From a virus (taxonomy: Duplodnaviria > Caudoviricetes): a stretch of DNA of 64,000 bases. The stretch lies in IMG/VR virus record IMGVR_UViG_2887663082_000001, positions 32,761-96,760 of that record. One strand, written 5' to 3'. Under the pieces are notes generated by a model, which saw only the letters and a program-made list of their open reading frames with translations, was not told where the DNA came from and made no database searches. Within the stretch, counting starts at the first letter, position 1. Each line of letters begins with the position of its first letter. The translations under genes were made by a program, and so were the position numbers. Positions 7,501 to 62,553 of the stretch are shown in pieces.

Positions 7501-8115
7501 CCCAACGCGGGTTAAAAGAGCGTTCTCCTTGCGAGAGTTTTCCTCCTGCTCTTTATCGTGGCGGCTCCGGTTGCGAGACTCTTTATCGTCATTAACCTTA
7601 TCTTTTGATGTGAATCGTCCATTCTTATCGCGTGTTGCCTCCGGGCGGTTCGGTGTACGCAAAATTTTCAACGCATTTTCACTATCTTGTTTTAAATCTG
7701 TTTTATGGTTGTCCTTTGGTTGGTGTTGAATTACTTTGGTGAAATTCTGCGAATCATCAGGTTTCTGATTGTCGCTTGATTCGCTTATGGTTGTTTTATC
7801 GTTGATGTTATCGGGTTTAGTGCCCTCCGTTGATGTTGATTGCTCTTTGGTTGCTATATGTTTGTTGTTTGATTGTTTAGCGGCGTTTTTCCGGCGTTTC
7901 TTGTCCTGTTGGGCTTTTCTCTGCTTATTCAGAGCTACGCTGCGGGAAGTGTTGTCGTCTGACGGCTGCACATTGATTGCTGAACCGGCAGACGGTAACC
8001 CTTCAGTGAGGCCTTTTTCGATTCGTGACAGTACTGCGAGCTCTTTATTGCTTGCTACGTCGACGGAATCAATCACCTCTTTAAAGCCGGGCTTCTCTGG
8101 CTTATCACCGTTCAT
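4555..8115 (-). CDS. sit: P1 Sit-like tape measure/structural lytic transglycosylase
   Basis: 1186 aa; SLT motifs ESGGN, GAKGMFQFMPKTA and AYNWGEGN; lies between pmgB and pmgA. Confidence 0.85.
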   Translation of the reverse strand: MNGDKPEKPGFKEVIDSVDVASNKELAVLSRIEKGLTEGLPSAGSAINVQPSDDNTSRSVALNKQRKAQQDKKRRKNAAKQSNNKHIATKEQSTSTEGTKPDNINDKTTISESSDNQKPDDSQNFTKVIQHQPKDNHKTDLKQDSENALKILRTPNRPEATRDKNGRFTSKDKVNDDKESRNRSRHDKEQEENSRKENALLTRVGKMMSELGDPMEADSTNAAGTAAGGSFWKAGHEVYSMSKGMGSGALDAKNKMKDFLGGEEGEDGTKKPGMLRRAFSRKPKDGSKNVIERQVQKQQVNATEHQTEQIKEGNKEITDRLDELLNKQGGGGGGKGFWGSIGSMFGKALRKPIQAVGKLLGKVLLLPLTIASALMTTAFKLGKAILLKAIATAGGSRAKDALDGMGDDSLPDSGKGKNKKKKPKKPKGPKKPTKGNFLKRLFKSKGAKITAGVAAAGYGAYQASDLLDGEESDAAKENKPSEQEKRVAPEEKPAAKPTEETPKAKPANKPTAAAKTEKVAGKEASTVAKKEATTAVEKGALKVAEEGGEKIALEGGAKLTAKTLGKTALRSIPVIGQIAGAGIDAVTGYMDTEGQQQAFGLKSTDKVSARQKAEYTTANVLDMGGLVSGAAGLLSSGANALGMDGVAKALDFNTADIAKLIDKGVGDSISSVKSVTDAIGITGNDKKADERNQTLIEAVKKGASDTIEAINNLVAGGVSAAATAITGKPNNGPVKVGDFKTPVPTETGRMQLDSMAGKFASLEQQYGLPPGLLRGVATTESGGNNGAVSGAGAKGMFQFMPKTATEYGLIGNDVYDPDKSAAAAAKKLGGLVKRYNGDVGLALSAYNWGEGNIQKKGMGAAPKETREYAPKVIAAMQAAGAAAPTTAINYTNAKGASNDALPATQTPTAGTPAATSQAQTPTAQQQQQTAQASNDARFTSAKLPTDSQAFKDIPGGEYLSKVINDNGGDKLANAEGERHQVSTAELDALQRGKSPQSQQKVQEAKESAAQAHVAASGSMYSRAQLPTDNSWLKDVPGGELISQKINEWGGDKIANAEGLRHQASAAEIDAMQTGAPPVATTSVKPAKQKVQPANMAIPAKILAVKDMSASQMKSTVNVANEMTLPKSLTKTWESILKRLDEIAGHTKDTAEKTGDNTPKANTPQPAPRTSVPLTIDDASMSEVARN

Positions 8116-8194
8116 GGTGTCTCCTGGTGGTGTTTTTCGTACCAGAATCTTAAGGAATGTTCTCTTTCCCGTGTTAGATGAAAAAAACGCCTTG

Positions 8195-8365
8195 TTAAAT
8201 TATTATTTTCACAAAATCGTAAAATCATAAATTGTTTAAATGATAATTTATGATGTTGTTATTGCCATTGAACGCCGCTATCATTGGTGAAAACGGGTTG
8301 ATTTACATTGTTAATTCGATGGTTTGTGAGATTGCGAATTTGCGATTTTCACAAAATCGTAAAAG
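8195..8365. repeat. 8-bp-periodic centromere/operator arrays upstream of parA
   Basis: tttcacaa-aatcgtaa-aatcataa and tttgtgag-attgcgaa-tttgcgat-tttcacaa-aatcgtaa. Confidence 0.65.
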
Positions 8366-8374
8366 AGGGGCGTT

Positions 8375-9001
8375 ATGATTATCCTTATAGGCTCACAGAA
8401 AGGTGGCGTTGGTAAATCCACGCTGGCAGTTAATATTGCAGGCTATCTCATCTCTCTGGGTAAGCGGGCAATCGTCATTGATGCTGACGACCAGCAGTCT
8501 GTGATGACGTGGTACAACAGTCGCGATGAATCACATGTATTCATTCCTGTTATATCCGCTGCCGGGAACGTCAAACAGACTTTGATTGAGCAAAACAAAA
8601 ATTATGATTACGTAATTTGTGACAGCGCCGGACGTGATAGCAAAGAGTTGCGTACAGGCCTCACTGCGGCAGATATCTTCATTACCCCCATGCGCCCCTC
8701 TCAGATGGATCTTGATACCATCGCCCATCTGGCCGAAGTTTTTACTGAAGCCAAAGATTGGAATGAAAATGTTCGTGGCTACGTGATGTTAAACATGTGC
8801 CCAACGAATATGTTTATCAATGAAGCAAACGAAACAGCAAACGCACTTGCTGATTACCCAGAATTTAAGCTCATGGAGAGCCGCGTGTGTGACCGAAAGG
8901 TTTACCGTGATGCATGGGGTGACTCGATAACAATTCATGAAGCATCAAACGATAAAGCCAAAGGCGAAATCGAGGCTGTTGTGAAGGAGATACTACTGTG
9001 A
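8375..9001 (+). CDS. parA: Type Ib ParA/ParF Walker-A partition ATPase
   Basis: KGGVGKST and DADDQ motifs; 208 aa with no N-terminal HTH. Confidence 0.92.
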   Translation: MIILIGSQKGGVGKSTLAVNIAGYLISLGKRAIVIDADDQQSVMTWYNSRDESHVFIPVISAAGNVKQTLIEQNKNYDYVICDSAGRDSKELRTGLTAADIFITPMRPSQMDLDTIAHLAEVFTEAKDWNENVRGYVMLNMCPTNMFINEANETANALADYPEFKLMESRVCDRKVYRDAWGDSITIHEASNDKAKGEIEAVVKEILL

Positions 9002-9345
9002 GCATTAAACCACGAGTTGTACGTCCGAGAACTGAGGAAGAGTTCATTAATGGTGCTAACCCTGATTCACCAGCAGCATCTAAACCAGCAGAGGTTTCAT
9101 CATCAGGGACCGAAGAAAATAAGGCTCCATTAGAGGCTAAAAGTAAACCTCAAGGTAGTCGCGCGCTTTCCATCAGTGTTACCGACCACCATTTATCATT
9201 GCTGGATAGATCCATAGCCGAAGGCCTGATGAATGGGATTTCTGGGGTTAAACGCTCTGATATCGCAAAGGCGGCTTTCCTCGTCTGGGAACGTATGAGC
9301 CAAGCCGAGCGAGTGAAGGTCCTTTCAGAACTGTTAGCAAAATAG
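8998..9345 (+). CDS. Small centromere-binding protein (ParG-like, probable RHH)
   Basis: Overlaps the parA stop; EEFINGA N-terminus, flexible linker, then a beta-helix-helix-like C-terminus. Confidence 0.65.
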   Translation: MSIKPRVVRPRTEEEFINGANPDSPAASKPAEVSSSGTEENKAPLEAKSKPQGSRALSISVTDHHLSLLDRSIAEGLMNGISGVKRSDIAKAAFLVWERMSQAERVKVLSELLAK

Positions 9346-9354
9346 TTAACTATT

Positions 9355-9740: not shown

Positions 9741-10637
9741 TCAACCGACATTTGCAGTATGTCTCGGCGCGGTTGCGGGCCATATAACGCCAGGTTGGAG
9801 ACTAACGTCTGCAAGGAGTCCAGTGCCAATGTTTGGAATGAACAGTGAATTCCGAAATCGGGTCAGCAGGCGCGTAGTAGGGCGCTCTGCTGCCTCCTTA
9901 TATTTATCCGAGTAGCATTCATGAGGTGGTAGCACCAAATCCGATTCGCCCTTATCGAAGCGAATATTGAGGCCGTGCTGGAGCTCGTACTGCATGCTCT
10001 TAACCTCTTTGGCCAGCGCCAGCAATTCGGTGCCGACGGCCATTTTACCGATGAGCTCAAAACGGTTTTGGGCAGACTTGTCGTAATCAGGCTCCAGGTC
10101 ATAAACCAGTTTTGCCTGATATACCAGCTCCCATTTACGCAACAGCGTGAGCGCCTCTTTGTAATCATCTTGCTTGCTGGTGGGGGGAAGGGCGGCGCGC
10201 ATGATTTCGAGGCGTTCCATCGCGTAACCGTCAAGTGGAGACAGTGACCAGTCATAAGGCTGGCCATCCACTGGAATAGTGGCTTCAACAAACGGTTGTG
10301 TCGTCAGTACGTTCAGCTCACGTGACAGGTGGTACACGTCACAATTGTACCAGTGCTCTTCACCGCAATGCTGGCATGTGTAGCTGAAGTCGATAATGGT
10401 ATCGGCGCGTGAGTTTATGAAAATCCACCACAGCGCCGTTCTGCGATCGCTGGCGGTCCAGCTGCGCGAATCGGAAAGCTTATCCTTCTCCTGAAGCTGG
10501 TTCAGATACTCAGTTGTGTCGCGTTCTTCAGTTGCCTCTGTCGATTTGCAGAAATAAATTGCATCATCGACCGTCGGCATCCGGAACAAAATGCGCTGTT
10601 TGGGTCGGGAGGGCAGGGGGAATACAGGGATTAACAA
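9741..10637 (-). CDS. pmgB: P1 PmgB-like tail morphogenesis protein
   Basis: FPLPSRP N-terminus, CxxC motif; synteny between tub and sit. Confidence 0.75.
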   Translation of the reverse strand: MLIPVFPLPSRPKQRILFRMPTVDDAIYFCKSTEATEERDTTEYLNQLQEKDKLSDSRSWTASDRRTALWWIFINSRADTIIDFSYTCQHCGEEHWYNCDVYHLSRELNVLTTQPFVEATIPVDGQPYDWSLSPLDGYAMERLEIMRAALPPTSKQDDYKEALTLLRKWELVYQAKLVYDLEPDYDKSAQNRFELIGKMAVGTELLALAKEVKSMQYELQHGLNIRFDKGESDLVLPPHECYSDKYKEAAERPTTRLLTRFRNSLFIPNIGTGLLADVSLQPGVIWPATAPRHTANVG

Positions 10638-10646
10638 AACTTACTC

Positions 10647-11252
10647 CTACACAGCTGGAAGGAACGTAGCGGCAAAGTCGCCGAAGGTTTTCCGTTGAAC
10701 AAATGAGAGAGGAAACGAAATAAATTCACTTATCTGATCCTTTGAAAAGGTCATTTCGCCGCATTGGGTCGGAATTACGCTCAATGTTTCCATGAGCGTT
10801 GGAACGCCGGTTGCCTGCAGCCGATAAATGCGAATATTCATCAGGTATTCATTCTGAAGGTTAATCGTCCCGTCGTCGTTTATAACTCTGCCAAGGCAGA
10901 CCTTAAATGCGTTATAGATAAGACCGGCATTGGTATCTCTGACGACCATCGATATGGGTTGCGCGGTTCGGGAAACAGGCTGGTTGTACTCATTCGCACC
11001 GATCCGTTTGGGCTCGGTTTCTATGGTGTAAGTTCCCCAGGTTATATCCTTCATAAAGAAATCGATACCCATGCCACCAATACCCTCCACCTCCACGGCA
11101 AACATCCAGCCCTGTGCAAAGAGTATTTTGTTAAGGGCCATTGCCGTTAGTTTGTTTATCTGTTGCTCGCCGAGACCAGCCGCAAACATAAAGGACGGCA
11201 GTGCGCCAACCAGACCTTTAGCCGCGCTCGTGAGTAAATCAGTAACGGCCAT
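10647..11252 (-). CDS. tub: P1 Tub-like tail tube/baseplate protein
   Basis: LFAQGWMFAVEVEG..FFMKDITW tube-fold-like sequence; synteny. Confidence 0.75.
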   Translation of the reverse strand: MAVTDLLTSAAKGLVGALPSFMFAAGLGEQQINKLTAMALNKILFAQGWMFAVEVEGIGGMGIDFFMKDITWGTYTIETEPKRIGANEYNQPVSRTAQPISMVVRDTNAGLIYNAFKVCLGRVINDDGTINLQNEYLMNIRIYRLQATGVPTLMETLSVIPTQCGEMTFSKDQISEFISFPLSFVQRKTFGDFAATFLPAV

Positions 11253-11255
11253 CGG

Positions 11256-11819
11256 TTACCCCCAGCTTGAGAAAACAGACATCGCTTGCGGTATCGCGCC
11301 CCGCGTAGACATCTCTGCTTCAAGGTCGGTTCTACGCTGAACTAAAGCGGCTTCATCTGGGATGTTGGATGCGTCAAGCTTACCGGCGATGGACACGCGG
11401 CGATCCAGTTCAGAGTTAGGGATAGCGATCAGGATTTCGAGGTAGTCTTTGATTATGCCAACGGCAACCGGCGGAACGGTCCCTTTGTCGAGGTCCAATT
11501 GGGAGAGATGTACGAGATAGTCCATGCGCAGCGGGTACGATACTCGCTGGTCAGAACTGATCTCGATGTTGCCACCAAAGATATCGCAGGACACGTAATT
11601 GCCAGTGGCATCGGTAACGGCCACCAGCTCAAGGTAATCATCAGGGCAGGGGATAGATGAACCTTCTTTAACACGGATGCTTTGAATGCAACCGGCGCGG
11701 TCCTGATATTCGGTTAATGCCTTCCTGAGGAGGGCATCAAGCATGTCTTTCTGGTTCTCAACCAGCAGGGTGAGGAAGCGTTTTTTCACTTCCTCCAGTA
11801 GTTCGCGAGGTGTGGCCAT
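11256..11819 (-). CDS. pmgC: P1 PmgC-like head-tail adaptor
   Basis: TPRELLEEVKKRF..LLRKALTEYQDRAG; synteny; late promoter upstream. Confidence 0.75.
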   Translation of the reverse strand: MATPRELLEEVKKRFLTLLVENQKDMLDALLRKALTEYQDRAGCIQSIRVKEGSSIPCPDDYLELVAVTDATGNYVSCDIFGGNIEISSDQRVSYPLRMDYLVHLSQLDLDKGTVPPVAVGIIKDYLEILIAIPNSELDRRVSIAGKLDASNIPDEAALVQRRTDLEAEMSTRGAIPQAMSVFSSWG

Positions 11820-11861
11820 AGTGCCTCCTGTTTAAAGGCACCATGGTATGCAAAGTTACAT
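11816..11861 (-). promoter_or_regulatory. Late promoter with RBS-sequestering hairpin (pmgC)
   Basis: ATGTAAC-TTTGCA-TACCAT; stem CCATGGTGCCT/AGGCACTATGG. Confidence 0.75.
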
Positions 11862-11877
11862 TTGGGGAGGGATGTAA

Positions 11878-12585
11878 TCAGTTCGTGTTGGCTTGGTTTT
11901 GTTTCGATTTATCCAATGCTTGTTTTATCCAATCTGAATCTTTCGATAACAGAAATCTGGGGTAGTCGTCGAAAATGCCATCCTCATAGGCCTTTTCGAA
12001 AAAGACCTTAAAGTCATTAATATTTTTAATTTCAGGGGAATGTCTATAAACCTCATTTAATCTTTCAAAGAACTCACTAAACGAGGCACGACGTGTTTCA
12101 CTTATGCTAATATTTTGAGCCAGTTGTTTTAGTTTTTTTGATTCTTTTGCTATCTCTTCTTGTATTCTTTTTATCTCATTATTTTTTTCAAGTGTTTCCA
12201 ATTCAATTTTTTTGATTTCCGCTTCGATCTGTGCTGCCCTTTTTTTATCTGCTGCATGTTGTGCTGCTGACATGCGGCTCCTTGCTATTGCTAGTTTTTC
12301 CACATAATAAGCCAGAACCCACGGTACGACAAAAGCAGCAATGGTGCCATATAACATCGGAAGCCAGAACGCGTACAGCTTAAAGTGTGGTTGTGATACA
12401 AGAGAATGTAATACCAGCTCTATAGGTTTTTTGGATTTTATGACAATGATTATCTGCTGCCAGTTATGAATAATAAAAGATACAATTAGGTATCCAAAGA
12501 ACCCATCTTTCATTTTTTCAGAAATTAGATTGGAAAGCCTGCTTGCCCATGTAATTTCTTCATTTTTATCTTGTTCTGCGCTCAC
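11878..12585 (-). CDS. AT-rich membrane protein with C-terminal coiled coil, function unknown
   Basis: Two hydrophobic segments followed by an E/K-rich coiled coil; AT-rich relative to neighbours. Confidence 0.7.
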   Translation of the reverse strand: MSAEQDKNEEITWASRLSNLISEKMKDGFFGYLIVSFIIHNWQQIIIVIKSKKPIELVLHSLVSQPHFKLYAFWLPMLYGTIAAFVVPWVLAYYVEKLAIARSRMSAAQHAADKKRAAQIEAEIKKIELETLEKNNEIKRIQEEIAKESKKLKQLAQNISISETRRASFSEFFERLNEVYRHSPEIKNINDFKVFFEKAYEDGIFDDYPRFLLSKDSDWIKQALDKSKQNQANTN

Positions 12586-12640
12586 GTAAAATCCCTTAAT
12601 ATGTTAAGAGTCTCAATATCGAGACTCTTCTAATACGACA

Positions 12641-13057
12641 TCAATCCACAAATGAACTAACCGGCAGATCAAAGCGTTTAGCCAAAGCGCGCATATGATC
12701 CAGAGTCAGAGAGCGTTGACCGTTCAGAATGCGGCTAACGAGTGCTTTTTTGCCAATCTCATTCTCGAAATCACTTTGATTGAGCTGGTATTGGTCCATC
12801 AGTGTACGCAGTAGCGCTATGCCTGTAGGAATAGCGTCTACTTCTTCGTTGAACTCAGCGAATTCCGGTGCCTCATCTTCATATTTAGTTATTTTTGCGC
12901 ACAGCATATCGACCAGGGGGCTATCTGGTTCGCGCTCGATGAGATATTCCACCAGCTTGAGCGCCTCTTCATAATCTTGGCGTGAGGAACTGCCCCCCAG
13001 AATGGGGAGCATTGTTGCCAGGCTGTTTGCTGCGTTAATCGCGTCTTGGTACATCAT
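12641..13057 (-). CDS. higA: HigA antitoxin (HTH)
   Basis: Resembles E. coli HigA/YgjM (APEFAEFN, LRTLMDQY, VSRILNGQRSLTL). Confidence 0.9.
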   Translation of the reverse strand: MMYQDAINAANSLATMLPILGGSSSRQDYEEALKLVEYLIEREPDSPLVDMLCAKITKYEDEAPEFAEFNEEVDAIPTGIALLRTLMDQYQLNQSDFENEIGKKALVSRILNGQRSLTLDHMRALAKRFDLPVSSFVD

Positions 13058-13365
13058 TCTTTGTTTCTCCGGTAAAAATCGGTCAGCTTGTCGTACTCAG
13101 CGTGGGTGGATATGTGCTTGATGAAGATTTTTTTTGTTACGAAATCAGCAAAAAGCATCACTCTAAGATTTCCACCGCCAACATCTACAACCCACCATTT
13201 CTCCCTGTACTTCATTCTGTCGAGGCTTGGAAGCCTCTTCTTCATATCTTCCGGGGAGTTGAAGTTTTCACGCTTCAGTACCCGGTATAAATCTTTAAGC
13301 GCCGCCGCTTGGTTAGGAAACTGCATTGAGGCAGTATCGAACGGCGCTCTTGATATAACGTGCAT
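13054..13365 (-). CDS. higB: HigB mRNA interferase toxin
   Basis: Resembles E. coli HigB/YgjN (PSLD..KY, VGGGNLRV, THAEYD); toxin-first gene order. Confidence 0.9.
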   Translation of the reverse strand: MHVISRAPFDTASMQFPNQAAALKDLYRVLKRENFNSPEDMKKRLPSLDRMKYREKWWVVDVGGGNLRVMLFADFVTKKIFIKHISTHAEYDKLTDFYRRNKE

Positions 13366-13380
13366 CCTGTATCCCTTGGA

Positions 13381-13435
13381 GTTTCCTTGTTGGAAACATT
13401 ATAGGGCAGACGTGAAGAGTTTACAATATGGAAAC
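13381..13435. promoter_or_regulatory. Two palindromic HigA operators
   Basis: GTTTCC-ttgtt-GGAAAC (13381-13397) and GTTTAC-aatat-GGAAAC (13419-13435). Confidence 0.65.
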
Positions 13436-13454
13436 TGTCGAATTTGGCAGGAAT

Positions 13455-13479
13455 AAAAAAACCCGCCGAAGCGGGTTTA
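13455..13479 (-). terminator. Terminator of the head/tail late operon
   Basis: aaacccgc-cgaa-gcgggttt with a poly-U tail on the minus strand. Confidence 0.75.
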
Positions 13480-13511
13480 TCTGTACATCGTCGATAGCGT
13501 TATCGAGGTTA

Positions 13512-14006
13512 TTACTCAATAAAGTTATAGACGATACGCAGGTTAGGGCGCACCAGGGCGGTCACATCTTCAGTAGAGAGGTCTGTGCCGTCCATGTAGA
13601 TCTTACAGTCGTACAGATTGGTTTTGAGCGAGTCCGGGGATTTGCCCCCAAAGGATTCCGGAGTTGCCTCGATGCGAACATCGAAATAGCTCTTGTTGTT
13701 CACCGCATCTTTGATGAACTTCAGCATTGGGCCCTGAATGGTTTCGACAACCTGCGCAGGCATCTCACCAGAGTTACGAACTGGACCGTGTTGGTTGAAC
13801 TTCATGCCGTTAGGTCCGAAGTCCTCCACATCTTCACGGGTACGCTCAGGGAACTGAGCAGTACGGAACAATACAGAAAGATGCTCCTGGCCGATAACGG
13901 TGAGTTTAAACTCAGCGCCATTGAGTTTTTCACCCATTGAGCGGTTGGCAACATATTGCTCCTTCAGGAATGCAACGTTGCCAACGGCATTAGAATGTCC
14001 GGGCAT
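13512..14006 (-). CDS. bplB: P1 BplB-like tail tube protein
   Basis: REDVEDFGPNGMKFNQHGP..NSGE; synteny. Confidence 0.8.
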   Translation of the reverse strand: MPGHSNAVGNVAFLKEQYVANRSMGEKLNGAEFKLTVIGQEHLSVLFRTAQFPERTREDVEDFGPNGMKFNQHGPVRNSGEMPAQVVETIQGPMLKFIKDAVNNKSYFDVRIEATPESFGGKSPDSLKTNLYDCKIYMDGTDLSTEDVTALVRPNLRIVYNFIE

Positions 14007-14021
14007 AAGGTATTTTCCTCA

Positions 14022-14636: not shown

Positions 14637-14641
14637 ATCCG

Positions 14642-15376: not shown

Positions 15377-15384
15377 AATTTGCC

Positions 15385-16986: not shown

Positions 16987-17041
16987 TCAGAACTGTCCTG
17001 TTTAGCGCCCCAGCGGGGCGCGTTTGGTTGAAATCGTTTGA

Positions 17042-18769
17042 TTAGTTGCTGGAGGAGCTCTCGATCACGCCGCCGGTGCGGAAGTTCAGGCCGCCAACTT
17101 TGAGGTTGGTGAGGGTGAACAGCGTGAAGTAGTCCTGGCCGTTTCGTGGGTGAATACGGTTAATGGAGGAACCCCACAGAGTGGTGCGGTCCACCAGCGC
17201 CGGAGTGGTCGGGTGTTTGAACGGAATAACCGGAACAGCATCACCGGTGATGAAGCCTGCTTTGCCAGGGTTTTCATCGCGGCAATAGCACAGGATGTCG
17301 TAGGAGTGGAACTCGATGCCGCTATTGGTGAATGCAGTGCAAACGCCAGAAGGGATCTCGAACACTTTGATGCCGTTGAACAGCGTACCGATGAAGTGAA
17401 CGTATGGAACCTGAGTGTAGTTCTCTGCTGCGGTGAACAGGTTCGGCGGCAACATCTTGATGAAACCAGCCGCGTCAGCGCCCGCGAACATACCGACAGA
17501 GCCGGTGGTACGGGTACGCTCTGCGATGTCGCGGAATACCTGCTGCACCTTACCTTTGAACATCATGGTCCAGACATCCAGATTGGTATCCTGCGGGATA
17601 GCCACATCGTAGGTATCGGTGTATTTACAGCGGCGGATCATGGTGCGCAGACGCAGCATGTCCTGCTCATGAGACAGGTAATCTTTCAGGGTACGGTACT
17701 GCAGGGAATCCAGATCGATACCGAATTCGCGCTGCGCATCGTAGGCTGCCATTACGCTATGTTCTGCGGCCAGAGCATACTGTGATGGGTACACAGTCCA
17801 TTCACGCATTTCCTGGTTAATAACCGGGATGTATTCAGGAGCCTGCTCGATGTTGATCTCAACTTCAGCTTCCAGCTCAACGCCAGAGTCCAGCGGCTGC
17901 GAGAAGGTGAGGTCGATCTGACCTTTCGCATAGTCAATGACACCGGTAAGAACGTTCTGCTGCCCATCGGCATTAGCAAAGTCATAAATGATTTTGCCGG
18001 TATTACCGCTGGTGGACGTATCAACATCTGTCGCTTCATTGTTGATGTAAAGGACCGAGCGGCCTTTACGGATCGGAATTTCTTTACCGTGTTCAAAGTC
18101 GGAGGTTTTGAAGCTGAAAGAGGTGGTCGCGCCATCGCCTTTAGCCGCCAGCACGTAGTTGCGGCGCATTTGAGCGTATTGGCCAACGGACTGCATGTCC
18201 AGCTGATCGCCCTGGGTAAAATCGCCGAAGGTGGTACCGGCTACGTTGATGATTTCGTAGATTTTGGACTTGTCACGCGGTACCGGGATGAAGGTACACG
18301 CATCACCAGTTTGCGCACCCAGCGCAACCGGCAGGATCATCGCCAGGAAGATCGGCTGACGGATGATACCGTCCTGGCTGGACATCACTTCAGTGTTGAT
18401 GGATTCCAGCATGAAATCGGTGGTCGATTTTTTGCCGCCAGCCTGGTTATTTTCCAGAATGAGACAGTTTTCGAGGGTTTGGTGGGCTGCTGCCAGTACT
18501 TCCGGACGCGGAGCGCGTTTATGCGTGTTGGAGTAATCCGCGATTGCAGCACCCCAGGCAGACAGAACCGAACGCTGAACGTCGGGGGAAACGCCTTCGA
18601 AGATAGGATCTTGCTTCGCCGCTTCCATCATCGATGCAACGCGCAGCTCAGGGTCCTGGATGAAGCCATTCTGATCGAACTGCGCATCGGAGCAGTAGCG
18701 GGTCACGAGACGCGCACTGTTCGAAATTTCGGCAATGCGTTTACGAAACTCTTTGTTGTTGTCGGACAT
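17042..18769 (-). CDS. Major capsid protein (P1 gp23-like); likely start ATG 18769
   Basis: Colinear with P1 gp23 as I recall it (HQTLENCL, LSHEQDMLRLR, HPTTPALV.RTTLWGS); MLES putative maturation site. Confidence 0.92.
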   Translation of the reverse strand: MSDNNKEFRKRIAEISNSARLVTRYCSDAQFDQNGFIQDPELRVASMMEAAKQDPIFEGVSPDVQRSVLSAWGAAIADYSNTHKRAPRPEVLAAAHQTLENCLILENNQAGGKKSTTDFMLESINTEVMSSQDGIIRQPIFLAMILPVALGAQTGDACTFIPVPRDKSKIYEIINVAGTTFGDFTQGDQLDMQSVGQYAQMRRNYVLAAKGDGATTSFSFKTSDFEHGKEIPIRKGRSVLYINNEATDVDTSTSGNTGKIIYDFANADGQQNVLTGVIDYAKGQIDLTFSQPLDSGVELEAEVEINIEQAPEYIPVINQEMREWTVYPSQYALAAEHSVMAAYDAQREFGIDLDSLQYRTLKDYLSHEQDMLRLRTMIRRCKYTDTYDVAIPQDTNLDVWTMMFKGKVQQVFRDIAERTRTTGSVGMFAGADAAGFIKMLPPNLFTAAENYTQVPYVHFIGTLFNGIKVFEIPSGVCTAFTNSGIEFHSYDILCYCRDENPGKAGFITGDAVPVIPFKHPTTPALVDRTTLWGSSINRIHPRNGQDYFTLFTLTNLKVGGLNFRTGGVIESSSSN

Positions 18770-18819
18770 AATCAAGCCTTTTTGGTTTTCAGACGGCTTG
18801 ATTATGCTGAAAGTTACAT
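18767..18819 (-). promoter_or_regulatory. Late promoter with perfect 12-bp hairpin pairing the -10 box with the capsid start codon
   Basis: ATGTAAC-TTTCAG-CATAAT; inverted repeat CATAATCAAGCC/GGCTTGATTATG. Confidence 0.8.
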
Positions 18820-18998
18820 CTCGATTTATTTTTGATTAGTACTTTAGGTAAGAAAAAGGCGCTTGCGCGCCTTTGGGATTTCCATGTACCGATTTGCAAA
18901 AGGACTGTCAAGATAAAGGCGTCAAAAAGACGCCTTGAAATAACTTTCTAAAAGTAAACGACATGAAAAACTCATGCTTAACTAACATAAATTAGTAT

Positions 18999-20363: not shown

Positions 20364-20365
20364 GA

Positions 20366-20650: not shown

Positions 20651-20700
20651 AAAAAAGCCCACAGTTGTTGAGACTGTGGGCAGTGTATGGATAGTTACAT
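20648..20700 (-). promoter_or_regulatory. Late promoter with hairpin over the upfC RBS
   Basis: ATGTAAC-TATCCA-TACACT followed by GCCCACAGT/ACTGTGGGC-TTTTTT-ATG. Confidence 0.75.
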
Positions 20701-20880
20701 TTAAAGGGGATGCTTCGAAGTAACAATTGAGGTTAGTAGGTAAAAAATGGGTGTGTATCAATATAAAGTGCTTGTGTTATGCACTAAAACACTAGATGTA
20801 GTAGAGAAAGTCAGATGAAAAATTAAACATGTGTTTTGGTTAATACATGATATTATTACATTATTAAGAGAGGGGGGATT

Positions 20881-29905: not shown

Positions 29906-30549
29906 AGGTAGCGCCCCTTGCCGGTAAGCGAGCTCATGGTGACGGACTTGATGCCAGCCTCCTCAGTAGCGCGCACTATTTTCCGGAGTGGTTCGAGTGG
30001 ATCAGGCGGTGTCTCTACCTTCAGGGATGCGTACATCTGTTCAAGGTATGAAACGCTGGTCACGTTTTGATAAACCGTGCCATAAACGCAAACGAGCAGC
30101 AGGATATGCTCGCTCTTAAGCCGCTCCCAGTCGATTCGGTACACCGTGCGCCCGCTGGTGTCATGGTCCATATCAATGAGGTTCTCAGGGATTGTGTAGC
30201 GCTGGCCTGCACCGGATGTTTTAGGTTTGATGATCGCCTTCTGGATATTCAGCTCTCTATACAGATCCAGCGCTTCAACCAGTATCGGCTTTCCGCTTGT
30301 CCCTGGGTTGGCTAACTGGATATGAACGCCGCCGGTTGAACTGAAGAAGCCGCTACGCTCATCCACCAGCACGTCATAACCATCCTTCTCCATCTTGCGG
30401 ATTATCTCCGGTACGACGTTCTGAAGCCCTTTGCGGTCCGTTGGTAGCGTCTGTTCAGTAAGCAGGGAGAGGTTGCCCCTATGCCAGACAGCTTCTACCA
30501 GCATTGGTTTGGCGGTTGAGAGGGTGATGGCGCATATCGCCTTATCCAT
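29902..30549 (-). CDS. mat: P1 Mat-like particle maturation protein
   Basis: AKPMLVE, VLVDE, YRIDW..EHILL..YGTVYQNV, SLTGK. Confidence 0.8.
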   Translation of the reverse strand: MDKAICAITLSTAKPMLVEAVWHRGNLSLLTEQTLPTDRKGLQNVVPEIIRKMEKDGYDVLVDERSGFFSSTGGVHIQLANPGTSGKPILVEALDLYRELNIQKAIIKPKTSGAGQRYTIPENLIDMDHDTSGRTVYRIDWERLKSEHILLLVCVYGTVYQNVTSVSYLEQMYASLKVETPPDPLEPLRKIVRATEEAGIKSVTMSSLTGKGRYL

Positions 30550-30603
30550 AGTCGGACTCCACTGATGATGAAGTGACTATCTTATAATTAGTATTATCTG
30601 TAA
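30548..30603 (-). promoter_or_regulatory. mat leader: RBS hairpin, -10 TAAGAT and adjoining C1-type operator (30586-30603)
   Basis: AATTAGTATTATCTGTAA; minus-strand stem ATAGTC-ACTTCAT/GTGGAGT-GACTAT. Confidence 0.65.
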
Positions 30604-39134: not shown

Positions 39135-40332
39135 CTTTCCCGTAAAGCAGGTTATTTATTTCGTCGTCTGGTACTTCATCTTCAGCAAATTGGGAGATCA
39201 GATTGATGTCGTTAAGTGAGCCATCAGCAGCAATGTCTCCATAGCCGCCACCATCGACCAGGAGGTTAACCGCCTCGCGCTTTTCGGCCATAAGTTGCTC
39301 ATGTCTGGCATGGCGAATCGCCCTTGCCTCTCGTGCCTGGCGGTCCAGTTCCTCAGGGTCATATGTCACAGATTTGACTTTATCGCTCTCACCTTCTTTC
39401 ACTTCTTTACGGGCCATCTCCATCAATAGCGCCGGAACCTTGTAACCATGCGTCTCGATGTAAATCGCGGTATCAACAGCGGTCCACCCGTTCTCCTTGC
39501 GCTGCTGGTAGGCCTGCATGATGTATTCAGGTTCATTGGCTTTACGGTCGTGCTGTTCCTGCTCGCGCTTGTTCTTCGCGTAACTCTGGCGAATACCGGC
39601 AAGGGAACGGGCAGTATCGTTGATTGCACCGGCGGCAGCGGCGGCGACGGATAATGCTTTCGTAATTGGATTTGGGCCTGGTTCGCCATCTTCAGACGGC
39701 GGCGGCTCCTCGGTCAGATAGGTCAGGACCGCCTTAACTGTACGGTTCAGACAGAACAAGTTAACGAGCGATGATTCGATGGCCATCGCCTCTATATCAT
39801 CAACGCCAGCGTCGGCAATTAACCTACGCGCCTCTTCGAGGTCCTCATCATTTGGGATGATGGATGTATCAAGTATCTGGCTCCCGGCCATGTACTGATC
39901 ACGGGCACGCCCTGATTTGGTCTTGGTGGATACCGCATTGATCAGTTTCCCGACCGGCACGCTTTCTTCTGTTTGCCCCGCATCGATGCGCGCGTGTCTT
40001 CCGGCCTCTTTGACTTGCAGACTTAATTCATTGATTTCCTGAGATATGTTTTTAGGCTGCTTCTTGCCGTTATGATCGCTTTTTCCTTTCGCGGGCTTTT
40101 TTTGATCAATTGATCGTTTGGGAGACCGTTTTCCATTGTGATCACCTGCGCGCGCAGCGGGCTGATTGCCGACCTTGGTCGTGCCCTCACCGAGATAGCG
40201 ACGTGCTGTATTGGGGTTCAAACCATAGTTAAGTGCATATTCCTTAATGGAAATCTTTTCGCCCGCCGCCCGCATTTCTGCATAGCGTTCTCTATGTTCA
40301 GACCAGTCCGTTTTTACTGCCACTGCGATCAC
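39115..40332 (-). CDS. pacA: Terminase small subunit
   Basis: [17 protein letters not shown]; upstream of pacB; GATC-rich 5' end. Confidence 0.88.
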
Positions 40333-40382
40333 CCCTTTCCAACGATGATCACAGTCTACTGATCGTTACATCTCGTTTGATC
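40074..40382. other. Putative pac region (GATC cluster) and late promoter LPpac
   Basis: GATC at 40074, 40104, 40112, 40140, 40327, 40347, 40361 and 40379; ATGTAAC-GATCAG-TAGACT at 40371-40353. Confidence 0.7.
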
Positions 40383-41634: not shown

Positions 41635-41635
41635 T

Positions 41636-42100
41636 ATGTCAGGAAGCGACACCAAGGCGAAACGTGATGTGCTGTCGATCAACATCACCGATGATTTGAA
41701 GCGATCAGCGGCTTCGTGCCGCTTCATTGATGAGTACCGTGCCACCAGCGACCGTAGCGCTAAGCGTACCAAAATCGTTAGTGCGTTGACTGCTGGCCAG
41801 ATTATGCAGGAATGCGAGCTGATGGCCGTGATTGGCTTTATCGATACTGAAGCCTTTGCCAGACTCGATATCGATCAAAAACGACTGATGCTGTTGGCTC
41901 GTATGCAGGAGTTTATTGGTGTGGTACAGCCAGTTACCGCACCTGTCGTTACTGCTCCAGCGTCAACACCGGTGCAGCAAACTAAACCGGTGGCCCCTGC
42001 TGTTAAGGAGCCACCAGCGTCGGTTACTGAAGAGAAGCAGGAAAAAGCAGAGGGTTCAGCTAGAGTGAGTAAATTCGCTAACCAGCTGCCCGGTGCTTGA
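41636..42100 (+). CDS. ParR/StbB-like adaptor
   Basis: Small gene coupled to parM with a low-complexity C-terminal tail. Confidence 0.6.
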   Translation: MSGSDTKAKRDVLSINITDDLKRSAASCRFIDEYRATSDRSAKRTKIVSALTAGQIMQECELMAVIGFIDTEAFARLDIDQKRLMLLARMQEFIGVVQPVTAPVVTAPASTPVQQTKPVAPAVKEPPASVTEEKQEKAEGSARVSKFANQLPGA

Positions 42101-42514
42101 ATCTCTACGCGGTGAATACAGCATTAACCGCGTTAAATAAGCACCTGCTCTTTCCTTCTCATCCTCATCCATAAGCATTTTTTCACGGCGGTCCGGAGGG
42201 ATTCTCTCCGGATTTCTGCAACGCCTGAAGAATGCATCATCTATCCGTGTTAAGTAGAACGTTCGCGGGCGTACTGAGAGATCAACAATGCAGTCTGAGT
42301 TATAGGACAGCGCTATAGATCGCAATCTCAGATAAATATCGCGTAACGACGAGTGGTACTGCGGATACTTCAACCTTAAGCCTTCAGCTACTTCTCTGGC
42401 CGTGGCTGGCTTACCAAGCTCTATCAGATACTGCGAAATTTCCCACGACGTAAGCCTATTGTGCTTTGCCAAATAGACACCTCGATGAGACATACAGAAT
42501 GTACTAATGCACAT
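42056..42514 (-). CDS. lpa: Late promoter activator (likely start TTG 42472)
   Basis: RLTSWEI..RDIYLRL..IA..RPR.F..FFRR matches P1 Lpa as I recall it; operator at 42699-42716. Confidence 0.85.
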   Translation of the reverse strand: MCISTFCMSHRGVYLAKHNRLTSWEISQYLIELGKPATAREVAEGLRLKYPQYHSSLRDIYLRLRSIALSYNSDCIVDLSVRPRTFYLTRIDDAFFRRCRNPERIPPDRREKMLMDEDEKERAGAYLTRLMLYSPRRDSSTGQLVSEFTHSS

Positions 42515-55226: not shown

Positions 55227-58200
55227 ATGAATCTTATTTATAATATAGTGTGGAACCATTCCCTCATGGCATGGACCGTAGTTTCCGAGTTTGGAAAAGG
55301 AAAAACCAAAAGTTCTTCCCCGAAAGCTAAAACAAGATCCATAGTACGCACCACCTCTGCAGTACTTGTTGCTATGGCCAGCAATGCCTATGCAATTGAT
55401 ATCAATGGTTATACAGATTTTAACTCATCCACAACTATCACTGACGGTATGCAGTGGAACACAACGGCAACCGTTCAAGTAGACGCAGGTGCTGATGTTA
55501 CGGTTTCCAACCCATCTGGTAACACAACTTTGAATATGGCCCCGGCTGGTGGGGGAAATACTTCTTTATGGATAAATGGCGGTTCATTAACCGCTAGCGA
55601 TAATGGCAGCCTACAGATGGGGAATAATAGTCTGTTACAAATAGGCGGTGCTCAGGTTGGGGGGTTGACCAGTGAACAGTCTGGTGGCTCAGCAGGAACG
55701 TTATCTGTCGGTGATTTAACAACTGCTACTGCTGCTACTGACGCCACAATCTGGATGTTTGGTTCTGCAACTTCTACAGCAAAACTGAATGCAAATAGTA
55801 TTGATCTGGAAGCTGATAAAAACGATTTGTTCATTGATAAACCTAGTAATTCAGAGCTTGGTGCTGACATTAATGTCGTCAATGATATGACTGTCATTAA
55901 CAAGACTGGGGGTAGCTTCCTTTTAGCAGGAAATTCGAGCCTTAATGTTGGAGGTAATCTTTATCTCGACACTACCAATGGTTCGTTTCTAGTTAGTAAT
56001 GACAGTAGCACACGAGGTATTAATGTTGGTGGTGATCTAACATTAACAAATAATGTTAAATTATCTTCTGACATTAACTCCGTTAGTACTTCCGCAGGGA
56101 TTTATTCCGCTGTTGTAAATGTCGCAGGTGATATCAATGTGATCGGTAAAAATGTTGGAAACACCGGGTTGCAAATCATCAATGCTGGAGGTTCCGGAGT
56201 AACTACTCTTGGTGATTTTAATATTTCATCAACAGTTAGTGGTAACACCACTGATGTTATCTTCGGCCATGCTGCTAAAGTAACCAGTGAGAAAGATATC
56301 AATCTTAGCAGTGTGAATGGTAGTGCCGTAAACCTTTATATTGGTGATTCAAAATATGGGGCTCCAACAGATATATCTGCTAAAAGCATCACTATGTCAG
56401 GTGATGGTGATAATAAAGTCATTTTCAATAATAATAAACCAACTAAAATTGGTGAAGATGGTTATATATTTGATGTGGCAATTGATGGCGCAGGAAGCGT
56501 CGAGCAGCAGTCAGGACACACAACATTAAGTGCCGCGTCAAACTACAATGGCGGCACGGTCATCAATGGAGGCCTGCTTTCGATTTCGGACAGCAAGGCA
56601 TTGGGAAGTGGGGGTGTGGTAGTAAATACTGACCCTGGTGATATAACTAAAGGTTTAGATATTGCCTATACTGATGGTTCTGATTTCACCAATACTCTGA
56701 GTGGTAGTGGCGACACAACCGTTTCAGGGGATGCGAAAATCGTCAGTGACAACAGCATCTACGCCGGTAACTGGAATGTTGTTGGTGTAGCAACATCAGC
56801 TCAGAATGCGACTAATAGCCATGACAATTTTGGCAGTGGGAGTATAAACATTGCCGAAAATGGTTCTTTAATTGCAGACACAGATGATTCATTTTTATTT
56901 GATAATAAGCTTACTGGCAATGGTCAGCTAACTGCAAAAAATAACGGCAACGATTTTAATTTTTCATCTACCGTTGGCAATGAATTCGCAGGCGACGTTC
57001 TCCTCGAAACGAATAAATTTGAACTAGATGGCGTTAATACAACCACCTTAGAAAATGCCACGCTGCATATCGGAAATGAAAACACAACAACTATAGGTAG
57101 TGGTACCCAAAACATCGGTGGATTAGCGTTTAATGGTGGGACACTCGTTTTCGGGGATATTTCACCAGGAACTACTACAAGTGACAATTTCATAGAGACG
57201 AGTAAGAACTTAGACTTAACTGGCAAAGGGTCTATTCAAATTACTGATAGCGGTAGTTTTGACAACATACCTCATGCTCCAGATGGCACGCGTCCTCTAC
57301 TCCAACAGGATGATGCCGGGGTTATGGTTAAGCTGGCAGACAGCACAGGAACCATCACAGGTAGCGGCGGTGACCTTAACCTAATAGATCAAAATGGTAA
57401 TGCAATATCTGATGCTATTGTAAACAATATTACTCAAAGCGGAGAGACCGTTGCCCAGGGCACCTATGATTATCGTCTTACAAGCGGTGATGATAGCGAC
57501 GGCCTATATATAAATTATGGTCTAACCAAAGTTGAGCTGTTGGCACAGGGAGATAATGCTTTAACACTAACGGCAGACGGTAATACTGGCAATGCAGCAG
57601 ACCTCAGTGCTCAAGTAGTCGGTAATGGTGATCTCAGAATAGATACAGACACTGATGTTTCATTGTCCAACAGCGGGAACAGCTACACCGGCGCCACATG
57701 GGTAACCGCTGGCGGGCTAAAAATGGGAAACAATGATGTACTGGGCAACACTCGTTTGCTTAATCTGGCTGGCGGAACACATCTGGATATGAATGGTTAC
57801 AGCCAGACATTGCAGAATCTGATCACTGAGTCAGGCAGTACACTTGATTTTAACAAAGGGGCTCTGACAGTAAACAATGGGCAGGTTGACGGTGCGATGA
57901 TTGGTGCAGGCAGTCTTAACGTTACTGGGGGCACCCTTACCATAAGTAGCGATAACTCAGATATGTCTGCTGATACTACTATAGCTTCTGATGGTGTAGT
58001 TAGAATGCTTGCTAATCAAGCTATCGGTACAGGAAAAGTAAATAACCAGGGAACATTATACCTTGGACAAAATGATGCCGTTTCAGGGGCATCAGTCGCC
58101 GCAACATTGCCATCTCAATACCAGGTTGGTGAATTGACCAATAGCGGTACGGTTGTTATTGGACATAACGACGCAAACAATAATCCTGTTGCTGGTACCA

Positions 58201-59597
58201 CTTTAACTGTGAATGGAAATTACATCGGTGACAATGGTCATTTACAGTTCAATACCACACTAGGTAACGATAGCTCTGTAACTGACAAGCTTGTTATCAC
58301 AGGTGATACTTCAGGAAACACTTTTGTCAGCGTAACGAATGCCGGTGGTGCTGGTGATTACACACTGAATGGTATTGAGCTTATCGATATTAGCGGCAAA
58401 TCTGATGGTATTTTTACACAGTCTGGTCGTATAGTCGCTGGAGCTTATGACTATTCTCTGGTTCGAGGGACCGGAAGCAATAGTAACAACTGGTATTTAA
58501 CAAACACAAAACCTGTTGACCCTATTGACCCTGTTGACCCTGTTGACCCTGTTGACCCTGTTGACCCTGTTGACCCTGTTGACCCCGTTGACCCTGTTAA
58601 CCCTGTTAACCCAAATGTTCGCCCTGAAGGCGGGAGTTACATCGAAAACCTTGCCGCAGCAAATAGACTATTTAACACAACCCTCCATGACCGTCTCGGT
58701 GAAACCCAATACGTAGATGCTCTGACAGGTGAAAAAAAGGTCACCAGCCTGTGGTTACGACAAGTAGGTAGCCATAATAACTGGCGTGATGGTAGTGGCC
58801 AATTAAAAACCCAGAGCAATAGTTATGTTGCACAATTGGGCGGAGATATAGCTCAGTGGTCTTCAGATGGTCTTGACCGTGGTCATCTTGGCCTGATGGC
58901 TGGTTATGGCAATAACCACAATAATACCCATTCCTCAGTGACTGATTATAGTTCGAAGGGTTCCATCAATGGTTATAGCGCAGGTATCTACGGTACATGG
59001 TTTGCAAATGATGCTGATAAAGCGGGCTTGTATGTTGATAGCTGGCTCCAGTACAGCTGGTTTAAAAACCACGTGAACGGACAGGAAATTGCTGGAGAAT
59101 CTTACAAATCTAAAGGGTTCACTGCTTCATTAGAAAGTGGTTACACCTTCAAGATGGGTGAGTTTTCGGGTAGCCATGGAACTCTGAACCAATGGTTTAT
59201 TCAACCTCAAGCACAAGCAACCTGGATGGGTGTGAAAGCAGACGACCACCGAGAGGCGAACGGCACACGAGTTAGTAGCGACGGAGACGGAAATGTTCAA
59301 ACACGCCTTGGCTTAAGAACTTATCTCAAGAGCCACAATGCTATAGATGAAGGCAAAGGACGAGAGTTTGAACCATTTATTGAGGCGAATTGGCTGCATA
59401 ATACACGTAGCTTTAGTGCAACAATGGACGGAGAACGAATCAGCCAAGCAGGTGCTCGTAATATTGGTGAGGTTAAAGTGGGCATTGAAGGACAAATTAA
59501 CCCACGTGTCAATTTATGGGGTAATGTCGGTACCCAGGTAGGTGATAAAGGGTATAGCGATACCAGTGCCACACTGGGTGTTAAATATAATTTCTAG
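55227..59597 (+). CDS. Type Va autotransporter adhesin, 1456 aa
   Basis: ESPR signal [14 protein letters not shown]; passenger; PVD-repeat linker; barrel ending KYNF. Confidence 0.93.
58512..58610 (+). repeat. 9-bp tandem repeat x11 encoding P-V/I-D/N linker
   Basis: (cctgttgac)n. Confidence 0.9.
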
Positions 59598-60035: not shown

Positions 60036-60047
60036 GGAATTTCTTAT

Positions 60048-61097: not shown

Positions 61098-61684
61098 TGT
61101 TTTAAGCTCATTTGAGGGATTGAATTCAGCTTCCCACAGGAGACGACATTGACCTGAGGAAGCGCAGAACGGAATAAGAGCGGAAGATGAGAAAGATTGT
61201 TTGGTAGCCCGCCACTATGCACGCGAGGCTCTTGTGTGGCGTCTACACCGACCAGAGCAACATTCTTAAAGCCAAGATGGTACGCCAGGCCAAGAGCGCC
61301 CCAGGCGGAATTACCGTTATGGATCTTGGTTTCGTCTTCTGAGAGCGTTAATTTCGCGGACCAGCGCCATAACCACCATTCAGGGCTTCCTTTAACAGGT
61401 GGCTCAACCCCCTGCTCTCCTACCCGTTCAAACGGATACACATGATTAATATCTGGCGCACCGGCGGTGCAGTAATTCACATTACGGCGGCGGATACGTA
61501 AACGACGAATGTTGTCGCAGGAAGGATCGAGAGTGAAAAAGTAGGATGCGCGGGATAGCCAGTCGATAGCGCCATTTACGGCAATGATTGGCACGCCGCG
61601 TGGCGGAACAAAACCAGCCGCTGAGGGGCCGGAAGCCACAATGATCACCCGATCACCGCTTCGAGGCTTTTTATTGGGAAGCAT
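61079..61684 (-). CDS. Maf/DUF115- or sialyltransferase-like fold protein
   Basis: IVASGPS, IAVNGA, NSAWGA and ALVGVD motifs. Confidence 0.6.
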   Translation of the reverse strand: MLPNKKPRSGDRVIIVASGPSAAGFVPPRGVPIIAVNGAIDWLSRASYFFTLDPSCDNIRRLRIRRRNVNYCTAGAPDINHVYPFERVGEQGVEPPVKGSPEWWLWRWSAKLTLSEDETKIHNGNSAWGALGLAYHLGFKNVALVGVDATQEPRVHSGGLPNNLSHLPLLFRSALPQVNVVSCGKLNSIPQMSLKQWLKNA

Positions 61685-62193
61685 GTAAGTTCAGTTCTCC
61701 GGGAACAGTTAATTATGTCGATATGCGATAGCTCGTTGCGCACACCGTCGAATTCGCGATGCCACTTCTGGACACTGGTTTCTGTGGGATTACGTAAATG
61801 CCTTGTATGTCGGCCATGGAAATGAATGCCCTCTCGGATAGAACAGTCATAGCCCAGGAGATAGATATGTTTTGCCCCTAAGCTGGCGGCAAACTGGATG
61901 GCCATAGAACCAGAGTTAAACTCAACTTCAGGTGTCCCTATGCGCTGATATTCAACGCCATAAAGAACACTGGCTGACCGGGAAGCGGTGCAGCGTCTGA
62001 TACCTGCAGGGACTGCGCCCCCGTATCGCCGCCACCAATCTTCATCCCCAGCAAACAACGCATACGGCTGTCGAAACATGCTGTATGCGTTATTAACTGC
62101 AATAACCGGGTAACCCAGGCCTTCTATCTCTTCACAATCCACTTTCTTCAATGATGGTCCCGAAGCAACACAAAAGACTTCATCAAACAACAT
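61645..62193 (-). CDS. Second Maf/DUF115- or sialyltransferase-like protein
   Basis: VASGPSL, IAVNNA, NSG..AI, YLLGYD, HFHG, IINCS. Confidence 0.6.
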   Translation of the reverse strand: MLFDEVFCVASGPSLKKVDCEEIEGLGYPVIAVNNAYSMFRQPYALFAGDEDWWRRYGGAVPAGIRRCTASRSASVLYGVEYQRIGTPEVEFNSGSMAIQFAASLGAKHIYLLGYDCSIREGIHFHGRHTRHLRNPTETSVQKWHREFDGVRNELSHIDIINCSRRTELTCFPIKSLEAVIG

Positions 62194-62208
62194 GAGGCTC
62201 CGTGCGGA

Positions 62209-62442
62209 TCAGGAGGATTGTGTTTCACCACCAGCATCGATAGAGACATTACCAGCGGAAATCTCAATGTGAGTCGGCGTTTTAAACTGAACAGGTAAAT
62301 CAGAAACAACGCTGACACGACCATCACCGAAAATGGTGACGCGACTGCCAACCGTTTCGACCTGCAGCGCTTCACGTTTAGGTACACGAACTTTGATTAC
62401 TTCAACTTGTTCTGGGATTTCAGAAACTGTATCTGTGGTCAT
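62209..62442 (-). CDS. Small protein heading the late GT operon; likely start ATG 62442
   Basis: RBS GAGG; late promoter ATGTAAC-TTATGC-TTTAAT at 62525-62507. Confidence 0.55.
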   Translation of the reverse strand: MTTDTVSEIPEQVEVIKVRVPKREALQVETVGSRVTIFGDGRVSVVSDLPVQFKTPTHIEISAGNVSIDAGGETQSS

Positions 62443-62553
62443 TAGAGCCTCATTAGCAATGTTAAAGGTGCGGTTTATCACCGCACCGGATAGGTTAATG
62501 AGGAGAATTAAAGCATAAGTTACATTTTAAAAATACTAATTATGAGCTTAGTT

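Follow-up and report, generated by a model that had tools for sequence, protein, structure and literature searches.

Late promoters of a P1-like phage-plasmid probably lie within hairpins that would close late genes to read-through RNA

The window analyzed here is a stretch of 64,000 nucleotides (bases 32761-96760) from one 96,760-bp virus record, IMGVR_UViG_2887663082_000001, which represents a P1-like phage-plasmid; this report is concerned with the late promoters of that element and with the hairpins into which several of them are built. The record has the gene order and gene content of P1, yet it is distant from P1, with approximately 66% DNA identity in the capsid gene 23 and 30-65% identity between its proteins and their P1 counterparts. 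Among public sequences, the closest relatives identified, with approximately 78% DNA identity, were an IMG/VR contig (G001) and two plasmids of Citrobacter freundii. A megablast of the window against phages gave no match, an Rfam scan of the window gave no family, and a scan of genome contigs returned only five loci. The relatives compared were four whole contigs (G001-G004, of which G004, IMGVR_UViG_2773857937_000001, is a variant of the P1 clade), a Citrobacter plasmid (CIT) and 80-locus sets for gene 23, pmgC and pacA. The Citrobacter plasmid NZ_CP145667 was considered as an independent lineage and rejected; since its leaders are all nearly identical to those of G001, it was not counted as one.

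The window encodes a homologue of the late promoter activator Lpa (42056..42514, minus strand), which matches Pfam family PF25716 (BPP1_LPA, E value 9e-21) and is 41% identical to P1 Lpa. In the P1 record, NC_005856, 11 late promoters are annotated, each composed of a "-22 region" of 9 bp, a gap of four bases and a -10, and when extracted these read AAGTGACTT-N4-TAnAAT. The late-promoter consensus in the window, ATGTAACTT-N4-(-10), has the same architecture with a different box, i.e., a partly palindromic 9-bp element centered near -22, a 4-nt spacer and a -10 hexamer, with no -35. The bare 7-mer ATGTAAC is not enriched (10 matches, 6.9 expected); the composite WWGTAAC-N7-A-N3-T is enriched, with 7 matches compared to 1.85 expected and none of 100 shuffles reaching 7. 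A matrix built from 19 known sites, on which real sites score 15-24, identified nine canonical promoters in the whole genome and one weaker site before darB, all of them preceding late genes and corresponding to orthologues of the P1 late operons for morphogenesis, packaging and lysis.

Six of the nine canonical promoters are in the window, all on the minus strand, as are the leader features described below. These promoters precede the pmgC-tub-pmgB operon (11843..11861; -10 TACCAT; matrix score 21.7), at the position of P1 LPsit; the capsid gene 23 (18801..18819; -10 CATAAT; 22.1), at the position of P1 LP23; the operon upfC (PAAR)-upfB-mlp (20682..20700; 23.4); the terminase genes pacA-pacB (40353..40371; 19.8), at the position of P1 LPpac; the pmgN-O-P-Q operon (62507..62525; -10 TTTAAT; 15.3); and pmgA (503..521; AAGTAAC), which has a 57-nt leader. 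The remaining three, outside the window, precede R, lydA and the endolysin gene. Judged by its architecture and position, the motif is this lineage's version of the P1 Lpa-dependent "-22 box" late promoter: the P1 late promoters (LPsit, LP23, LPpac, LPdar and others) share with it the 9-bp -22 box, the N4 spacer, the -10 and the lack of a -35, they serve the same operons, and Lpa is encoded in both elements. The box itself differs (AAGTGACTT in P1, ATGTAACTT here), and compared to P1 this genome has additional "restart" promoters (pmgA, upfC and pmgN) at cargo insertions or places of altered gene order. A preliminary description of the window had named P1-type Lpa promoters with a -22 element, which agrees with the P1 annotation and the encoded Lpa homologue; the sites it named, ATGTAAC-N6-(-10) before pmgC, gene 23, upfC, pacA and the operon at 62442 and AAGTAAC before pmgA, were all located. 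The "degenerate" promoters that it placed before sit and mat scored near background (1.1 and approximately 3, compared to 15-24 for real sites). Outside the window, at genome positions 21658 (plus strand) and 21759 (minus strand), two full late-promoter motifs are oriented towards each other at a distance of 100 bp; the hairpin between them is a terminator for the plus strand only, and the minus-strand motif serves a lambda-R-type (GH104) endolysin.

Inverted repeats are found in most of these leaders, and every repeat quoted in the preliminary description is present in the sequence. Start codons were anchored by homology, those of pacA and gene 23 by homology together with the spacing from the Shine-Dalgarno (SD) sequence. 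In the pmgC hairpin (11816..11846), the 5' arm (11846-11834) overlaps the -10 and the 3' arm (11828-11816) covers the SD GGAGG and the ATG (11819-11817); folded alone, as were the next two stems and the pmgN leader, this 13-bp stem has an energy of -19.3 kcal/mol (z -6.1). The gene 23 hairpin (18767..18806) is a perfect 12-bp stem (-16.2 kcal/mol, z -7.5) in which the 5' arm (18806-18795) consists of the -10 and the next 6 nt, and the 3' arm (18778-18767) runs through the ATG (18769-18767). At pacA (40322..40355), a 12-bp stem (-18.6 kcal/mol, z -6.4) pairs a 5' arm at 40355-40344 with a 3' arm at 40333-40322 that takes in the last part of the SD, the spacer and the GTG. The pmgN leader (62445..62503; z -5.6) carries an outer 8-bp stem (62503-62496 with 62455-62448), in which an anti-SD CCUC faces the SD GAGG, enclosing an 8-bp hairpin.

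A further stem was found before the holin gene lydA (genome 26862-26914, minus strand), at a site that precedes the window by 5.8 kb. This perfect stem of 8 bp, CTCGGACC/GGTCCGAG, extends from the final two bases of the -10 as far as the SD, and its duplex energy is -21.6 to -21.8 kcal/mol. The lydA leader represents a sixth strong case and an out-of-sample one, as it lies outside the stretch on which the hairpin idea was formed. The hairpin before upfC (20651..20681) is of another kind. It begins right after the -10, its 9-bp stem includes 6 G-C pairs, closes a 7-nt loop and is followed by U6 (z -5.0), it was found by a terminator scan, and it ends 6 nt before the ATG (at 20650) with no pairing to the SD or start codon. 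By these features it is an intrinsic terminator, and hence a transcriptional device rather than the SD or start-codon mask for which it had been taken. It shares the GC-rich stem, the loop and the U tract with intrinsic terminators in general; it differs from an ordinary one in that a promoter is overlaid on it and the predicted late start falls inside its 5' arm, so that it should halt incoming RNA only. Taken together, a stable helix is predicted to contain the SD and/or start codon at pmgC, gene 23, pacA and lydA, not at upfC or pmgA, and only marginally at sit and mat. The hairpins had been counted in 7 of 8 leaders; five of these (pmgC, gene 23, pacA, upfC and pmgN) are robust, sit and mat are marginal, and pmgA has none.

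The sit leader (8120..8152) holds a weak 7-bp stem with one G.U pair, which begins at the final base of a -10-like TAAGAT and extends to the SD, without a canonical -22 box (z -1.8; 11 of 200 shuffles equal or better); at the same position, G001 and the Citrobacter plasmid CIT have a canonical late promoter with a 5-bp anti-SD. In the mat leader (30546..30581), a bulged stem sets a -22-like box against the SD and ATG (z -2.55; 4 of 200 shuffles equal or better), the -10 is poor, the pairing register differs in G001 and the promoter assignment is doubtful. Locks at sit and mat are not established. The start of Mat in the window, G001 and G004 aligns with an internal ATG of P1 mat (P1 nt 2827), and a terminator-like hairpin and an SD precede this internal ATG in P1 (region 2716-2830); either the annotated start of P1 mat at 2716 would be approximately 37 codons too far upstream or P1 Mat would carry an extra N-terminal piece. 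Upstream of darB (genome 10290-10366, minus strand), a late-promoter-like AAGTGACCT-N4-TAAACT lies wholly within the 5' arm of an imperfect inverted repeat of approximately 17 bp, the 3' arm of which ends 2 nt before the darB SD.

The complementarity was evaluated as the duplex formed between a 30-nt segment surrounding the predicted start and a 22-nt segment surrounding the ribosome site. Duplex energies of -19 to -22 kcal/mol were obtained for pmgC, gene 23, pacA, upfC and lydA, compared to a mean of -7.6 and a best value of -17.8 kcal/mol among 416 pseudo-leaders, mostly coding sequence, at 104 other genes of the same genome. The pairing in these leaders is therefore non-random, as established directly by this control; the long-leader promoters (57-88 nt; pmgN, pmgA, R and endolysin) fell within the null. 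When promoters and leaders were swapped, the cognate partner ranked first of 19 for pmgC, gene 23, upfC and mat and second of 19 for pacA, which establishes that the complementarity belongs to each individual leader and does not simply come with the promoter motif.

In the strong cases, the 5' arm begins in the -10 (at upfC, directly after it) and ends 6-9 nt past the -10, and a polymerase of the sigma-70 type is expected to start at about that distance. Late start sites were predicted at 7 +/- 2 nt after the -10, and RNAs were modelled with each 5' end from +1 to +10, together with read-through RNAs beginning 30-200 nt upstream. In these models, opening of the ribosome-binding site (RBS) cost 15-20 kcal/mol in all forms of read-through RNA, and with a 5' end at +5 or later it cost 2.6-5 kcal/mol for pmgC, gene 23 and pacA and 8-9 kcal/mol for lydA and upfC. 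The modelled cost was 16.8 in read-through RNA compared to 2.7 kcal/mol in late RNA at pmgC, 16.6 compared to 3.8 at gene 23 and 15.9 compared to 4.9 at pacA. Because the -10 is within the 5' arm at pmgC, gene 23, pacA and lydA, an RNA that starts from it would lack that arm. The proposal that read-through RNA is locked while late RNA lacks part of the 5' arm agrees with the models for pmgC, gene 23, pacA and lydA, and does not for lyz, R and pmgA, with little effect at pmgN. The positions of the late starts, the existence of read-through RNA and the effect on translation are inferred.

The reading that we consider probable is that Lpa-type late promoters sit in the 5' arm of an RBS-hiding hairpin, such that read-through RNA would be locked and late RNA would be open. 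At the short-leader promoters (17-27 nt; pmgC, gene 23, pacA and lydA), the DNA from the -10 to about the start would also encode the 5' arm, and the 3' arm would be provided by the SD and/or start codon of the first gene of the operon. RNA entering from upstream would carry both arms, fold and hide the ribosome site; RNA made from the late promoter would begin at or after the end of the 5' arm, could not fold in this manner and would be translated. At upfC, incoming RNA would be terminated and late RNA would start inside the stem and escape. Read-through could come from cargo genes expressed in the plasmid state, from early transcripts or from the preceding late operon.

Conservation of the stems, with compensatory changes, was observed directly in the relatives. 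Five lineages within the window's clade have retained the gene 23 stem, and in these 91% of cells are paired compared to 21-53% with the partner slid; one position is A-U in the window, G.U in Chimaeribacter and G-C in G002, both changes in G001 turn Watson-Crick pairs into wobble pairs, and RNAalifold alone predicts a 9-bp core. At the same place in the P1 clade, P1 has CTCTTCC/GGAAGAG and G004 has TTTGTCCT/AGGACAAA. For pmgC, the window and G001 share a stem in which a G.U of the window is A-U in G001. P1 pmgC (LPsit) has its own perfect 11-bp stem (z -5.5), with the spacer and -10 as the 5' arm, and in the P1 clade the arms are invariant over 27 distinct upstream contexts with variation at several positions of the loop; in G004, the -10 carries a G-to-A change whose counterpart in the 3' arm is a C-to-T change, and the stem is extended (z -6.5). 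Both arms of the pacA stem persist in G001 and G002, where a U.G is replaced by C-G and the loop has another length and sequence; the pacA stem of P1 and G004 is a weak one of 7 bp with one compensated pair, energetically not distinctive. The loop-closing pair of upfC is compensated in G001, and the pmgN arms are identical in G001 and CIT, and therefore without covariation. The tail-fibre (R) promoter of G004 (L108 5190-5256) is embedded in an 18-bp hairpin ending at the SD (z -7.4), and the R promoters of this element and of P1 have no comparable stem.

When "locked" was defined as lying beyond the 5% null threshold on either measure, locked promoters represented 5 of 9 in this genome, 5 of 10 in G001, 2 of 5 in G002 and 2 of 11 in P1; locks are more frequent and stronger here than in P1. 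With only these proportions locked here and in P1, the suggestion of a genome-wide safety catch is too strong, and which operon is locked varies by lineage. A rule that the lock follows upstream co-directional cargo was rejected, as no lock is present at pmgA, which lies behind cargo, and one is present at pacA, which lies behind a divergent gene.

Several observations weigh against a general lock. In this genome, the lyz, R and pmgA promoters are unlocked; the pmgA leader has no relevant, RBS-masking stem (z -1.3) and an unchanged RBS opening cost, even though pmgA sits after cargo genes. At pmgN, the RBS opening cost shifts only modestly, from 7.7 to 4.4 kcal/mol, although the anti-SD CCUC is exactly the part removed. 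Among the P1 leaders, only that of pmgC has a strong stem, that of lydA ranks as moderate (z -2.0), and those of pacA and gene 23 are weak. Neither lydA nor pmgC is locked in G002 or G003, and the stem of gene 23 is weak in G003 as well as in several variants of the P1 clade. The lock would cover only the first gene of each operon, and pacA and upfC have a divergent gene immediately upstream and no evident source of read-through. The check for covariation across P1-like genomes, proposed at the outset, gave a divided outcome in that the stems are kept via compensatory and wobble changes but the counts are not distinct from shuffles; with 5-7 sequences per alignment, the covariation measures were reached by 45-67 of 500 shuffles. 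As these are small-sample statistics, the case rests on repeated agreement across leaders and clades rather than on any single alignment.

One alternative explanation is that the stems act mainly on transcripts, by terminating, pausing or 3'-stabilizing upstream RNA, with the overlap with the RBS being secondary. The upfC stem is a textbook intrinsic terminator, short hairpins begin directly after the -10 of lydA in G002 and G003 without reaching the SD, and in several lineages clear terminators precede the gene 23 promoter by 40-60 nt, so that insulation between units has plainly been selected. The stems at pmgC, gene 23, pacA and lydA are nonetheless without a U tract, in six leaders the 3' arm coincides with the SD or start codon rather than with just any part of the leader, and the stems are too short for RNase III, for which reason RNase III sites were also dropped as a candidate; we therefore regard a mainly transcript-level role as unlikely. 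A common protein operator was rejected as well, as the arms differ between promoters and their spacing varies from 5 to 40 nt.

The inverted repeats could also be functionless by-products of chance, of composition or of sequence constraints on promoter and RBS; arms that are themselves promoter or RBS would be conserved in any case. Such an origin would suit the weak cases (sit, mat, P1 pacA and P1 lydA; z -0.4 to -2.5), and the statistics from small alignments do not decide against it. None of the 416 control pseudo-leaders matches the five strong cases (pmgC, gene 23, pacA, upfC and lydA), however, non-cognate combinations of promoter and leader do not pair, different complementary sequences occupy the same position in different clades, and spacer bases without a promoter role belong to the invariant arms, all of which makes a by-product quite improbable. 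Least probable, and in our view very much so, is that the hairpins regulate the late mRNA itself, with a start further upstream and a stem that is opened by a factor such as a helicase or the ProQ/FinO protein of the element. The annotation of the close relative CIT includes a ProQ/FinO-family gene, and the late RNAs of lydA and upfC retain an opening cost of 8-9 kcal/mol; against this, the genome matrix scan found no second late-type promoter upstream, and the location of the -10 hexamer inside the 5' arm speaks against such regulation because the RNA of the promoter itself excludes that arm.

With regard to possible origins of the read-through RNA on which an RBS-hiding lock would act, a HigB-like toxin gene (E value 2e-22) and a helix-turn-helix antitoxin gene (window 12641-13365, minus strand) are located upstream of and co-directional with pmgC, with an open reading frame (ORF) of 235 aa (11878-12585) between this HigBA pair and the pmgC operon. 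The HigBA pair is likely to be a constitutive source of read-through for pmgC, and a cin-like recombinase gene, upstream of and co-directional with lydA, is a plausible source for lydA. Three RNA sequencing runs from a species with a related element contained no read on window 10600-21000, a result that is neutral for either reading. As to the setting in which locks might act, silencing in the lysogen, silencing early in the lytic cycle and insulation between late units are possible and fit equally well.

Other loci in the window differ from P1 in their arrangement. A ParM/StbA-type partition cassette (40543-42100, plus strand) is found between lpa and pacA, which are adjacent in P1, and a gene for a ParA/MipZ-like ATPase (8375-9345, plus strand) is found between pmgB and sit; both partition-type loci are on the strand opposite the late genes, and the P1 parAB-repA block (in the interval between gene 23 and upfA) is absent from that place here. 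Two exact copies of the 20-nt sequence TTTTACGATTTTGTGAAAAT, 140 nt apart (8205-8224 and 8345-8364, minus strand), are located upstream of sit and face the ParA-like gene, and this pair may represent an operator or a partition site. Between sit and pmgA, where P1 has no gap, a gene for an 815-aa colicin/pyocin-type DNase bacteriocin (1762-4209, minus strand; Col-Pyo_DNase E value 5e-52, Pyocin_S E value 5e-32) is inserted together with small ORFs (713-1760), and the late promoter of pmgA resembles a restart beyond the inserted genes. Two large cargo autotransporters, of 2312 aa (42936-49874, minus strand) and 1456 aa (55227-59597, plus strand), both have an ESPR signal peptide, an autochaperone domain and a beta-domain; the gene for the second contains a run of near-identical short repeats (GGGTCAACA-like) at approximately 58550-58640.

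The mechanism itself is already known from phage T4, the precedent named (for e and soc) in the preliminary description. In T4 genes e, soc, 49 and I-TevI, the ribosome site is sequestered in early transcripts, and open mRNAs are made from late promoters that lie within the DNA of the 5' strand; at gene e, the reduction is approximately 100-fold (PMC3014915). As in T4, the SD or start codon is predicted here to be paired, with the late promoter in the DNA of the 5' arm, and just as a lysis gene is protected in T4 (lysozyme), one would be protected here (the holin lydA). T4 is a virulent phage with late promoters that use gp55/gp33 and TATAAATA, whereas this element is a temperate plasmid-prophage with late promoters that use the host sigma-70 polymerase, Lpa and a -22 box, and compared to T4 the device is found here on capsid, terminase and tail-operon leaders and also in a terminator variant. 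Full-text searches on P1 late promoters combined with SD or secondary structure found no description of a promoter-in-hairpin design in P1-type phages, though primary P1 papers may contain one. What is new is the extension to capsid and terminase genes, the terminator variant, the higher frequency in this lineage and the compensatory changes across clades. It is quite possible, though somewhat less likely than not, that late promoters embedded in hairpins are a recurrent and evolvable means of insulation throughout the P1-like phage-plasmids, with locks (on tail, capsid, terminase, holin and tail-fibre genes) gained and lost by lineage and with translational and terminator versions.

P1 and its relatives live as low-copy plasmids, and leaky expression of the holin, of the terminase (through pac cleavage) or of the capsid would cost the element its host or its plasmid. 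If the proposed lock exists, it would explain how late operons tolerate neighboring cargo and early transcription, and constitutively expressed cargo such as toxin-antitoxin, partition and recombinase genes could adjoin lethal late genes. In P1-based vectors and phage-plasmids, a promoter inserted upstream should then not express the locked genes, and a late gene moved without its leader would lose its lock. The lock would also mean that the solution known from T4 arose independently with a different promoter type, and the C1/Lpa model of P1 regulation would gain a post-transcriptional layer.

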